Source: Escherichia coli O127:H6 str. E2348/69 (lineage in GTDB: Bacteria; Pseudomonadota; Gammaproteobacteria; Enterobacterales; Enterobacteriaceae). Taken from it: a stretch of DNA of 64,000 nucleotides. Made by a program: the position numbers. Where the stretch lies: NCBI RefSeq assembly GCF_000026545.1, contig NC_011603.1. One strand, written 5' to 3'. Positions 61,001-64,000 of this stretch are shown one piece after another. Position 1 is the first letter of the stretch; the number at the start of each line of letters is the position of its first letter.

Positions 61001-64000
61001 GACCGTGGTTGACAGCTTCAGTAACTTTGGCGAGCTCTGGCTGAACAGGGATAAACTCCCCGGGATTATCAATAGCTCTGCGGAGACGTTCAGCATGTAT
61101 CTGGAGCAGCAGATAGAATCGCTTATTGTCTGGCAGATCCCGAATACCTACATCATTGAATTCCGGGGCAAACCACTGGAACAACACTCATTGGGTCAAC
61201 GCGCATCCGCATTAATGCTGTTTGTCCTGAATCAGCAGGACAATGATGTGGTGATCATCGATCAACCCGAAGACGACCTGGACAATCAGACGATTTATGA
61301 CGACGTGATTAAAATCATCAGGGCGATGAAACCCCGCACGCAATTTATCTTTGCCACTCACAATGCCAATATTCCGGTGCTCGGAGATGCAGAAAATGTC
61401 TGTGCCTGTGAATATTCAGACGGAAAGATCCAGATTGTCGGCGGAGGCGTGGATGCCCCTCTTGTACAACAGCACATTATTTCGGTAATGGAAGGAGGGC
61501 GGGAAGCCTTCGAGCGACGCAGGGAAGTTTACGGCTCATGGCTCAGTAAAACCTGATACCATCATGCTTACTGAGCATACAGAAAAAGCCGCAAATGCGG
61601 CTTTTTAATTTTCTGATTATACCTTTTTTGGTTCTTCGATGGAAAAGAAAGAAATTACACAGGCCTGACATATCCATATGCCAGACATCTTCACATTCAA
61701 AGCATATGCATATACTGAGCATAGCCATACAGGCCGCCCGGTCAGGGGGAAATAATGAGAACTGTATCCATTTTTAAAAACGGCAATAACCGCGCCATCC
61801 ATCTGCCCCGCGATTTGGATTTTGAGCGGGTGAGAGAGCTGGAGATCGTCCGCGAAGGAGACAGCATCATCCTGCGTCCCGTCCAGCCGAACTGGGGCTC
61901 ATTCGCGCAGCTCGAAAAAGCCGATCCGGATTTTATGGCGGAGCGCGAGAATGTTGTCAGCGACGAAGGTCGATTTGACCTGTGAACAAAACGTATATGC
62001 TCGACACCTGTATCTGCTCGTTCATCATGCGCAAGCAGCCGGAAACTGTGCTGAAGCGCCTTGAGCAGGCGGCGTGTTTAGTCACCGCATTGTGGTCTCG
62101 GCCATTACTTACTCTGAAATGCGCTTCGGTGCCTCCGGTCCGAAGGCCTCCCCGCGTCACGTGCAACTGGTTGATAAATTCTGCCCGTGCCTCGATGCCA
62201 TCCTGTCTTGGGACCGCGCCGCGGTGGACGGCACCACGGATATTAAAGTGGCACTGCGCCAGGCCGGGACGCCGATCGGCCAGAACGATACGGCGATTGC
62301 CGGGCCTGAAGCTGGAAAACTGGGTAAATTAACATCGCCCACACTCTGAAGGACGTGGGTTCCGGCTTAAACAGGCGGACTGACTGCCCCAATCCTCCAC
62401 ACGCAAGCACGGCATGCCCCGCCGCTAAAATGTTACGAGCGCCGTTTACATCGGCATTCGCTGTATGACCACAGCCAGCACCTGACCACCACGCCAGAGC
62501 TGCTTATACTCAAGCTGGCAGCGCATTTCATACCAGCCCTGATCCAGTATCGAACGGTTTAAATCTGATTTTTATTCGTCATTTACTTCGAACAATACTT
62601 CAATAGATTTTGTCGGGTAGAAGAGCGAATCACAGTTTTCTTCCTTTAACTGTATAAAACCCAGTCGAAGGTAGAATTTTTTGGCGTTATCGTTCAGCGC
62701 CTCCACGAACATTCCGTGTATACCCACAGCCTGCGAGGCCTGATACACGACTTTCATCGCATGGGTAACAAGTGTTTCTCCATATCCCTGGTGATGAATG
62801 CTTTTATCAATTGCCAGACGGCCCAAAATCACGCTCGGCACATTTTTGTAGGGCACACGCTTTTGTTGTGTTTTGCTGGGGAGAAGTATTTTCTCAAAGC
62901 AACTGCCTGACAGGGTGTAGTACCCCATGACACGTGGTCTATCCTCTCTCGTCACGAGCAGATAACCCCGTAAAACCTTACTACTGTGCTGACGTTGCAG
63001 ATGATCGGTGAGAAAAGTATTCAGATACTCTTCTCCACAATCGAAGTTGCTTAATTGATATTCAACTTCCTCTGAAAAAATCTCAATCCTTAAACCGTCC
63101 ATTTATTACTCCAGTTCCCGGAGACGGTTAGTGGCGCGTTTCAGCCGGTCATTTGGTGCTGGCGGATTAGTGATTGCATCCATAACCAGATTCCAGGACT
63201 CCTCATTGAGGAGCAGGCGACGGTGCTGATCAATAACTTCAGCAGCACGTGCTGAGGCGGTACTGACCATGAACTGCGAAATGGACTGGTTAGTCATTGC
63301 TGCAGCTTCTTCGATCATGTGTTTGTCGTCTTCATTTAATCTCAGATCGATGCGCTGCTTCTTCAGTGCTGACATGGTTTTTCTCCCTGACCACTCTTAA
63401 TTCTGAAAGAACGGTCAGCTTTGTTAAGTTCGGGCCTTAAGGCGATAACATTTATCCAGGCCGGTCATGGTGATACTTTGATAGTGAGTACGGAAAAATA
63501 CCGTACAAACATAATAGAGTTATGGTATGCAGGTTTCAACCACAAGTTGGTTATGAATCCGGGTATAGCACGTAAAGGTATAGTGAGAAGACTCTCGACG
63601 CTAATCTGAGCAGGCTCAGACTATCTTTGGCGGGTCTGATCTTAAGAAGTCATTATTAAACTGCACTACGTAACCACCGTATTATGGATCTGCGAGCAAT
63701 TCAGGTACGGCATACTCTACATTGAGGGCTGAACCATCAGTGCTCGCCGCAGTCCGGTGACCGGGCTAAAGCCCGCGAACCGGCGAGGAAGCGCAATAAC
63801 ACAGAAGCTGAAGGAAGCAGGTACGCACTGTAGTCGCGGCAAGTGATCACTGAAGAACTATCTGAATTGCCTTGCTGCTCAGCAGGTTATCCACATATAC
63901 ATTCATTCGATCCAGCAATAAGATCCTTAAAGCGATCCCTGTAAGATCCAAAGAAGATCCCGACATCTCTGAAGGCCGCGCCAGCACTGAGCCTGGAGCA

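Follow-up and report, generated by a model that had tools for sequence, protein, structure and literature searches.

A decayed vagD toxin gene and an IS609 right-end remnant beside an intact vagC antitoxin gene on an EPEC virulence plasmid

Introduction

When the toxin gene of a toxin–antitoxin (TA) module has decayed and its antitoxin gene remains open, has the antitoxin been kept by selection or has it simply not yet been hit? The question is raised by a locus in a 64,000-nucleotide stretch of Escherichia coli O127:H6 strain E2348/69 (contig NC_011603.1; hereafter the window), which is identical (100%) to the EPEC adherence-factor plasmid pMAR2/pMAR7, an E. coli virulence plasmid with an IncF-type backbone. 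The original prediction, of a decaying vagD toxin gene beside an IS200/IS605 tnpB remnant, was correct, and the element can now be named as IS609 (insQ). We consider it very probable that the locus is a fossil, in which IS609 inserted, vagD and IS609 then decayed and vagC was left over. This is ordinary inherited gene decay that in essence has been annotated already: RefSeq/PGAP records vagD as a VapC pseudogene with the note 'frameshifted; incomplete', and the minus-strand fragment 3' of it as a frameshifted 'hypothetical protein' pseudogene. The decayed copy was not mentioned in the literature searched on vagCD of pMAR7 and ST131 plasmids, a coverage that did not extend to the pMAR7 sequence paper.

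Results

The two genes of the module occupy the plus strand:

61755-61985, plus strand: vagC, VapB-family (AbrB/MazE-type) antitoxin gene; intact 76-codon ORF, toxin partner dead
61982-62332, plus strand: vagD (VapC/PIN toxin) pseudogene with a net -1 scramble and a 65-bp deletion, from DNA alignment to intact Klebsiella and Citrobacter vagCD

The gene order, the 4-nt overlap GTGA and the upstream region are like those of vagCD, the VapBC-family type II TA module found on Salmonella Dublin pSDV and on IncF plasmids of Klebsiella and E. coli. VagC shares 89% amino acid identity with intact VagC, gap-free over all 76 residues, and the VagD-homologous segments share 85-90%. Its intactness had been predicted and was borne out by the full-length alignment and by a Pfam match to MazE_antitoxin (PF04014; 30.4 bits, cut-off 24.7), with the PGAP call being shorter at 60 aa. 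The window differs from vagCD in its dead toxin, in the VagC substitutions R16H and G25R, and in having an IS609 end in place of the native stop region.

The two frame changes that vagD was said to need are confirmed by alignment to intact vagCD. One is a net -1 scramble at ~62071-62080 and the other a 65-bp deletion between 62305 and 62306, flanked by CCGGG repeats. The loss had been put at about 10 codons; measured against the intact reference of 138 codons it amounts to 66 nt, or 22 codons, including the C-terminal NNTREFERV segment, and the vagD segment HAIAAGAVLVTNNTREFERVPG is deleted. With tblastn, vagD was recovered as two pieces in different frames, and the match of the frame-repaired product to PF01850 was limited to profile positions 1-89 of 120 (24.5 bits). 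The full conserved acidic set of VapC/PIN proteins, which we take to include the C-terminal residue in the NNxREF segment, is incomplete following the deletion of that segment, and there is no intact PIN toxin gene just downstream of the antitoxin gene, as there would be in a functional vagCD/vapBC module. Judged by its sequence, vagD is dead. Its present stop codon (62330-62332) is supplied by the terminal TTAA of IS609, the remnant of which lies on the opposite strand:

62329-62572, minus strand: IS609 (IS200/IS605 family) right-end (RE) remnant, 244 bp, from blastn, tblastn against K-12 insQ and covariance model R1
62329-62361, minus strand: RE subterminal hairpin (CCACG...TGTGG) and terminus, from alignment of nine intact copies and cmsearch
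62345-62349, minus strand: junction left by a 42-bp deletion flanked by CCAC repeats (alignment columns 397-438); loss of the insQ stop and of the central helices in the presumed omega-RNA scaffold
62471-62474, minus strand: junction of a net 94-bp deletion; InsQ residues 326-355 lost, with three of the four zinc-finger cysteines, and frame shifted

A TnpB-family C-terminal fragment had been placed on this strand between vagD and the GNAT gene, and a check for such similarity upheld it: tblastn with K-12 InsQ gave an E-value of 1.5e-27 over residues 292-325 and 356-397, nucleotide identity to insQ over the retained part is 87-95%, and the Pfam profile Cas12f1-like_TNB scored 26.1 bits, just below its cut-off of 26.3. 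The fragment is longer than the ~160 bp first given, and its 244 bp hold insQ/tnpB codons 292-325 and 356-397, the RE hairpin and the terminus. The zinc-finger signature attributed to it is in fact deleted, since C334, C337 and C353 of the CxxC...CxxC motif went with residues 326-355 and C356 alone remains; the motif taken for it was probably the adjacent RuvC-III motif, CGHTANADVNGARNI. This RuvC-III region (ADVNGARN) is the sole nuclease motif left of the RuvC-I, -II and -III of a complete TnpB/InsQ ORF, residues 1-291 being gone and the frame broken.

Compared with IS609 of K-12 (ydcM/insQ), the window has the same RE hairpin, with one broken pair, and the same terminus position abutting the flank, but it keeps 244 bp of ~1.7 kb and has lost the left end (LE), tnpA, the stop of insQ and its codons 1-291 and 326-355. 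Neither LE nor tnpA, which encodes the Y1 HUH transposase, was found at the locus, and the hairpin pair and intact cleavage sites that define the insertion sequence are incomplete. The terminal 12-mer GGAGGATGTCAA is invariant in nine of nine intact copies, from E. coli to Pseudomonas, beyond which the copies diverge; in the window it reads GGGCGATGTTAA, with three substitutions, one of which turns the terminal TCAA into TTAA. In three independent copies the LE of IS609 is preceded by TTAT. A separate 32-bp IS609 LE fragment is present at 51909-51940, 10 kb from the stump. The simple view that this fragment and the stump are the two ends of one element was rejected, as the orientation of the fragment is opposite to that expected of a split element. 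No part of the stump would be expected to work, with no ORF, LE or tnpA, an RE cleavage sequence changed from TCAA to TTAA and a broken guide-RNA scaffold.

We know of no experimental mapping of an IS609 omega RNA, and the scaffold is therefore assigned by analogy. The guide RNAs of TnpB, such as the ISDra2 reRNA, comprise the tnpB 3' end, the RE and ~16 nt of flank (PMC8612924), and the stump lies at the same position. The overlap with a guide RNA that had been proposed thus stands in principle by position, with the scaffold presumed, and fails on the scaffold itself. Intact copies share a multi-helix consensus structure in which the RE hairpin and the central stem show compensatory changes, and a covariance model (R1) was built in this analysis. 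The covariance search suggested for the right end did return a match (62329-62407, 41 bits, E ~1e-9), which falls below the 97-150 bits of intact copies. In both the window and a diverged sister lineage, L009, 36 model positions that form three helices are missing, including the helix 59-66 with 86-92, for which intact copies show a compensatory change, and in the window pairs are broken in two further helices, leaving the scaffold incomplete. Rfam scans of 60000-64000 and 62300-62600 gave chance-level matches only, none of them significant. The window copy scored 10.5 bits on HgcC (RF00062) against a gathering score of 50, and the intact K-12 IS609 end matched HgcC, RAGATH-18 (RF03064) and sot0042 (RF02656), families weakly related to the omega/right-end RNA, below the gathering score; these matches are hints only.

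On its other side the remnant adjoins a TacAT-like type II TA module in which both genes are intact and which lies outside the decayed unit:

62560-62572, minus strand: junction of the insQ fragment with native sequence just after the GNAT stop, from alignment with pKOX_NDM1, pCFSAN006238 and insQ
62572-63102, minus strand: intact GNAT-family acetyltransferase toxin gene (TacT-like), from Pfam GNAT domains, PGAP and omega (0.16 against L009)
63106-63375, minus strand: intact TacA-family (DUF1778) antitoxin gene, from Pfam TacA1 (83 bits), PGAP and omega (0.13)

The plasmids pKOX_NDM1 and pCFSAN006238 carry the GNAT–TacA module without IS609. A 13-nt stretch, TAAACCTGATTTT, is common to intact insQ and to the native sequence downstream of GNAT; at the junction the window has TAAATCTGATTTT, one base off, whereas L009 keeps the consensus.

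The lesions are shared widely. A stretch of 1851 bp with the vagD and IS609 lesions is present in 107 E. coli records, including EPEC pMAR2/pMAR7 and the ST131 plasmid pJJ1887-5, and among the records listed all but H2, whose copy is interrupted by an IS3 insertion, hold it unbroken and without gaps, exactly 1851 bp long and ≥99.8% identical. Both independent E2348/69 plasmid records have an identical, gap-free structure. The sister lineage L009 has the same -1 scramble, 65-bp deletion, RE junction, 42-bp deletion and GNAT junction. Neutral erosion continues, as shown by deletions private to L009, two in vagD (16 bp and 66 bp) and one, larger, in insQ; the L009 terminus is still TCAA, giving vagD a TGA stop. 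As they are common to ~107 E. coli plasmids and L009, the lesions are inherited and are not sequencing errors. An intermediate state, with vagD or IS609 intact at the same site, was sought in PLSDB and none was found. PLSDB holds at least 5000 vagCD records. Matches to vagCD at 90-99% identity were absent from it, and no intact vagCD was closer than ~87% nucleotide identity. The nearest relatives of VagC either share the lesions (L009) or adjoin a normal PIN toxin in unrelated contexts.

Between the window and L009, vagC has acquired seven nonsynonymous and four synonymous changes. The resulting omega of ~0.48 is three to five times that of the neighbouring genes (TrlF 0.10, GNAT 0.16, TacA 0.13) and far above the ~0.01 of intact vagC (Kpn versus Cfr). 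In a binomial test on these 11 substitutions, a small sample, P was ≤0.026 for omega ≤0.13 and omega = 1 was compatible with the counts; pMAR2 and pJJ1887-5 differ by 4 SNPs in 1851 bp, with none in vagC, and this pair is therefore without power for a selection test. R16H affects a position that is R in 33 of 33 compared homologues outside the pMAR2-type clade, and G25R one that is otherwise G outside that clade, so not all family-invariant residues are kept; L009 VagC has D70Y at a nearly invariant position. The C-terminal toxin-binding half of the window VagC has two changes only (D66N and N75D), both inside natural variation, and for this reason a capacity to neutralise toxin may persist. 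It is also possible that vagC is still expressed and its product able to bind VagD-type toxins; a simple promoter/terminator scan found four sites against 1.9 expected, with no strong sigma-70 match upstream of vagC, which speaks neither for nor against expression. The ORF is uninterrupted in both diverged lineages and the adjacent 590 bp have gained several indels, as selection on vagC would predict. Given ~4 lineage-specific indels per 590 bp, however, we estimate the chance of no indel in the 231 bp of vagC at ~0.2. The substitution pattern resembles relaxed constraint, for which reason vagC most probably persists as a short relic not yet hit.

Discussion

From the homologies, lesions and junction sequences seen in the two lineages, and from the substitution counts, we infer the following history. 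IS609, with tnpA and insQ/tnpB, would have inserted on the 3' side of a TTAT, complementary to the sequence at the vagD stop codon, bringing its right end against the last vagD codon, for which it now provides the stop. Inactivation of vagD would have followed, through the net -1 scramble and the 65-bp deletion between the CCGGG repeats. IS609 itself would then have shrunk to 244 bp of its right end in three events: a deletion or recombination at the 13-nt microhomology, which may have joined insQ codon ~292 to the sequence after the GNAT stop; the 42-bp deletion between CCAC repeats, which would have taken both the stop of insQ and the helices at the centre of the RNA; and the 94-bp deletion that would have removed the zinc finger.

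An alternative is that selection has preserved orphan VagC, either for anti-addiction or immunity against VagD/VapC of incoming or co-resident plasmids, or through reuse as a transcription factor. For CcdA the concept of anti-addiction is established, and orphan antitoxins have been proposed to act likewise (PMC7354431, PMC7192599). Potential vagCD targets are abundant on enterobacterial plasmids, and an ORF that stays open in two diverged lineages amid eroding surroundings, with a C-terminal half near consensus in the window lineage, would fit. We nevertheless regard selective retention as unlikely: the omega of ~0.48, small as the sample is, and the changes at conserved or nearly invariant positions, R16H among them, argue against it, and the anti-addiction role originally suggested gains no support from them. 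A single further PIN toxin is encoded in the window, MvpT/VapC (8501-8899), which has 41% identity to VagD and whose VapB has 29% to VagC. Crosstalk between VapBC pairs is unusual and, with identities as low as these, cross-neutralisation of MvpT/VapC by VagC is unlikely. A bolder form of the idea is more doubtful still, namely that VagC is a deliberately retained toxin-less antitoxin that would render pMAR2-type/ST131-type IncF plasmids or their hosts immune to PSK by common Klebsiella and E. coli vagCD plasmids, R16H and G25R uncoupling autorepression to make VagC constitutive. Toxin loss in the original TA context is the origin described most commonly for orphan antitoxins in Klebsiella (PMC7192599). 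Like chromosomal CcdA of Erwinia chrysanthemi, VagC is an antitoxin ORF with no working cognate toxin, here in its original TA context; it differs in being plasmid-borne, and the window VagC carries no signal of purifying selection.

Other readings would leave function or integrity elsewhere in the locus. It is most improbable that the stump still yields a functional omega/right-end RNA, guided by the adjoining TTTACCCAGTTTTCCA, which is antisense to the 3' end of vagD, with chromosomal InsQ/TnpB acting in trans. The RE hairpin and ~80 nt of scaffold-homologous sequence are kept and detectable with R1, insQ homologues occur in 4895 of 5426 E. coli genomes, and a guide RNA of this layout is known for TnpB (PMC8612924), but the lost helices, the broken pairs, the substituted 12-mer and the low R1 score all stand against it, and the insQ stump of L009 carries yet another deletion. 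A similarly slim chance attaches to the uninterrupted 116-codon ORF at 61982-62332, which exists as the two vagD frame changes cancel, being a new protein composed of the VagD N-terminus, 78 out-of-frame residues and the native tail; the out-of-frame residues are rich in Arg and Pro, PGAP annotates the ORF as a pseudogene, and in L009 it is broken by the 16-bp deletion and altered further by the 66-bp one. The idea that errors of sequencing or assembly produced the frameshifts in a truly intact vagD has nothing beyond general possibility in its favour and is next to impossible: a 65-bp deletion is not a homopolymer slip, L009 has the same vagD lesions, and the resequencing put forward as a route to an intact vagD is answered by more than 100 independent assemblies, the two independent E2348/69 records among them, that hold the same lesions.

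We therefore return to a fossil locus with vagC as its leftover. Neutralisation of incoming VagD by orphan VagC would make the locus a case of plasmid-borne anti-addiction at work in competition between plasmids, but the pattern of substitutions suggests the opposite. The significance of the locus beyond annotation is little. A named source, IS609 insQ and its RE, can now be given for a RefSeq 'hypothetical protein' pseudogene carried by over 100 E. coli IncF plasmids of clinical relevance, and the locus documents the stepwise erosion of a TA module and an IS200/IS605 element, apparently via deletions at short repeats and microhomology.

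Decay of vagD and of the adjoining IS609 stump

The following features make up the locus:

58935-61556 (+), 'TrlF family AAA-like ATPase' (PGAP), 873 aa
61755-61985 (+), vagC ORF, 76 residues, Pfam MazE_antitoxin above threshold
~62071-62080, vagD lesion 1, a scrambled stretch with net -1 base (alignment to intact vagCD)
62305/62306, vagD lesion 2, a clean 65-bp deletion; CCGGG direct repeats border the segment in intact vagD
~62345-62349, junction of a 42-bp insQ deletion between CCAC repeats
~62473/62474, junction of an insQ deletion of net 94 bp (residues 326-355 lost)

VagC is 89% identical to intact VagC proteins in a gap-free alignment. 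The closest intact vagCD in PLSDB, on one Klebsiella and one Citrobacter plasmid, share ~87% nucleotide identity, and no match fell at 90-99%. DNA alignment of vagD to these two agreed with the original prediction that the toxin gene needs two frame changes and traced them to the net -1 scramble and the 65-bp deletion, but the predicted loss of about 10 codons was an underestimate, as 66 nt (22 codons) are missing in total. The missing segment, HAIAAGAVLVTNNTREFERVPG, bears the C-terminal conserved acidic residue in VapC (PIN-domain) toxins. The sum of -1 and -65 is divisible by three, so vagD still reads as one 116-codon ORF from start to stop, with its central 78 codons out of frame.

The sequence at 62329-62572 (-) is homologous to the 3' end of the IS609 tnpB gene, insQ, whose annotated copies include those of E. 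coli K-12 and plasmid pDEC8E-1. K-12 InsQ matched it by tblastn (E 1.5e-27, residues 292-325 and 356-397) and nucleotide identity falls in two blocks of 95% and 87%, bearing out the proposal that a tnpB stump adjoins the dead vagD. The TnpB zinc-finger signature ascribed to it is absent, however, since the 94-bp deletion took exactly that piece: the InsQ finger is C334-x2-C337 ... C353-x2-C356, three of its four cysteines are gone, and what is kept, CGHTANADVNGARNI, consists of the fourth cysteine and, after it, the RuvC-III motif. With the 42-bp deletion went the insQ stop codon, the five codons before it and the initial part of the untranslated right end (RE) 3' of it. Elsewhere, an IS609-like insQ 3' end with RE occurs in 2294 PLSDB plasmid records, Klebsiella predominating, often under 'hypothetical protein' or without any annotation; RE stumps of IS609 thus seem to be widespread, unannotated features of plasmids in enterobacteria.

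Insertion site and outer junctions

Nine intact IS609-like copies (from E. coli, E. albertii, Salmonella, Serratia, three Klebsiella plasmids and Pseudomonas paraeruginosa) were aligned at the RE. An invariant 12-mer, GGAGGATGTCAA, closes all nine, and their sequences diverge directly beyond it, which fixes the boundary. Its counterpart in the window is GGGCGATGTTAA, with the last base at 62329; the complement of this terminus, TTAA, holds TAA, the present stop of the vagD pseudogene, and in a diverged sister lineage (contig L009) the terminus remains TCAA, giving a TGA stop. TTAT lies directly 5' of the left end (LE) in three independent IS609 copies, implying that IS609 would insert 3' of TTAT. 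This fits the habit of the family, in which IS608 uses TTAC and ISDra2 TTGAT (PMC8612924). A native vagD end of the form ...GTA AAA TAA would have the complement TTAT/TTTAC and so yield exactly the observed RE/TTTACCCAG junction; from this match and the TTAT rule we infer insertion at the vagD stop codon. A separate 32-bp IS609 LE fragment, TTTATCCGGTGCACCGTAAAACCCCGTCCTTC, lies at 51909-51940 (+) with TTAT immediately before it, apparently truncated inside its hairpin beside an IS1-family element (IS1-like ORFs at 52026-52720 (-)). The simple idea that it and the stump at 62329-62572 are the two ends of one element was rejected, its orientation being opposite to expectation.

On the GNAT side, insQ homology ends at 62572, the first base of the GNAT stop codon. 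Two IS609-free plasmids with a 93%-identical GNAT-TacA-RepFIB block, pKOX_NDM1 and pCFSAN006238, read ...TCTAAACCTGATTTTTTATTC past the GNAT stop, and insQ at the breakpoint reads ...GTTTAAACCTGATTTTGC; the 13-mer TAAACCTGATTTT, common to insQ and the GNAT-downstream sequence, sits exactly at the junction. The simplest reading is that microhomology-mediated deletion or recombination removed the remaining IS609 plus whatever lay beyond. The GNAT/TacA module, at 62572-63375 (-), adjoins RepFIB both in the window plasmids and in 93%-identical relatives from Citrobacter, Enterobacter, Klebsiella and Salmonella. What follows the GNAT stop varies by plasmid (IS5, sopAB or the IS609 stump), which marks a recombination hot spot directly after that codon.

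Right-end RNA

We know of no experimentally mapped IS609 omega-RNA. RNAalifold predicted a multi-helix structure for the nine intact copies; in a 131-column core 95.5% of cells pair, the consensus structure outperformed all slid controls, and four pairs, mostly in the RE hairpin and central stem, change on both sides. TnpB guide RNAs comprise the tnpB 3' end and the right end, with a guide of ~16 nt of flank (PMC8612924), and by analogy this structure would be the omega-RNA scaffold of IS609. A covariance model trained on the nine copies (R1) gave these 97-150 bits, against 41 bits for the window remnant (62329-62407) and 44.5 bits for that of the sister lineage. Both remnants lack 36 consecutive R1 positions, amounting to three helices, and have broken pairs in the first two helices and the hairpin and a mutated 3' 12-mer. 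The remnant is still recognisable as a homologue, but its structure is gutted; Rfam scans of 60000-64000 and of 62300-62600 gave no significant match. The intact K-12 insQ 3' end (L003, 2423-2549) gave sub-threshold Rfam matches to HgcC (RF00062), RAGATH-18 (RF03064) and sot0042 (RF02656), families that may be relatives of TnpB guide RNAs. The HgcC consensus 3' tail, GGAGGAGGUCA, is similar to the invariant IS609 tail, GGAGGAUGUCAA.

Age of the decay and fate of vagC

A VagC protein search led to L009, where a 91%-identical relative shares the unusual H16, Q44 and N46 and gene order matches the window (TrlF, vagC, remnants, GNAT, TacA, Rep). Alignment and cmsearch placed the -1 scramble, the 65-bp deletion, the IS609 RE junction, the 42-bp deletion and the GNAT junction in both, and 16-bp and 66-bp vagD deletions and a larger insQ-fragment deletion in L009 only. 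Judged from these shared and private lesions, toxin and IS were dead before the split and have eroded independently since.

Omega (dN/dS), window versus L009
vagC, 0.48
TrlF, 0.10
GNAT, 0.16
TacA, 0.13

An anti-addiction role had been suggested for the orphan vagC. Orphan antitoxins are common and derive mostly from degraded pairs, and such a role is only hypothesised (PMC7192599). Between two intact vagC genes omega is ~0.01. Here 7 of 11 nucleotide differences are nonsynonymous (177 nonsynonymous and 51 synonymous sites), which has P=0.026 at an omega of 0.13 and P=0.009 at 0.10 and is unremarkable at 0.5-1. R16H replaces a residue that is R in 33/33 compared homologues outside this clade, and there are further changes at G25R and, in the sister lineage, at D70Y (D70 being nearly invariant). 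With omega at 0.48 and conserved residues altered, vagC is probably a relaxed relic that has so far escaped disruption, on a small sample of 11 differences, and the anti-addiction proposal is unsupported. A counterpoint, albeit weak for a 231-bp target, is that vagC is indel-free in both lineages.

The only other PIN toxin in the window belongs to an intact pair:

8274-8899, mvpA/mvpT-like mvpAT/vapBC pair (VapBC family), between traI and traD

It encodes a 75-aa VapB and a 132-aa toxin starting MLKFMLDTNICIF..., which shares 41% identity with VagD. Between the VapB and VagC identity is 29%, too distant for cross-neutralisation to be expected, VapBC pairs being usually insulated from one another. 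A review was used for this point (PMC7354431).

Plasmid context

The 1851 bp at 61600-63450 are 100% identical to pMAR2 of EPEC E2348/69 and to NC_010862 (101,558 bp), and are present in 107 complete E. coli plasmids, including ST131 plasmids such as pJJ1887-5, and in a few Klebsiella quasipneumoniae and E. albertii records. The other records listed match at >=99.8% identity in one gap-free piece of exactly 1851 bp, the sole exception being split by an IS3 insertion. The TrlF ATPase, under purifying selection (omega 0.10), co-travels with the vagC-remnant-GNAT block in the window clade and sister lineage. In pJJ1887-5 the genes before it, HEPN and DUF3800, are frameshifted, suggestive of a defence islet in decay.

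RefSeq/PGAP orders the pMAR2 genes as TrlF-family ATPase, vapB, VapC pseudogene, (-) pseudogene, GNAT acetyltransferase, TacA-family antitoxin and RepB (RepFIB), and labels both the VapC pseudogene and the minus-strand 'hypothetical protein' pseudogene 'frameshifted; incomplete'. Decay at the locus is therefore already on public record, except for what the 'hypothetical' fragment is. The PGAP vapB has 60 aa (WP_369700577.1, 61803-61985) and a non-ATG start, as against the 76-codon ORF from ATG 61755, which is collinear with VagC end to end; the shortening may stem from a tiny pseudogene called on the minus strand at 61745-61846, which overlaps it.

The original observation is thus real and, once corrected, accurate: its interpretation is right in part, in that the dead toxin and tnpB stump stand, the zinc finger is absent and the anti-addiction role is unsupported. 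In mechanism the locus is ordinary: deletions at small repeats and at microhomology produced pseudogenes in a routine way on an IncF backbone that is a mosaic, and RefSeq already flags these pseudogenes.
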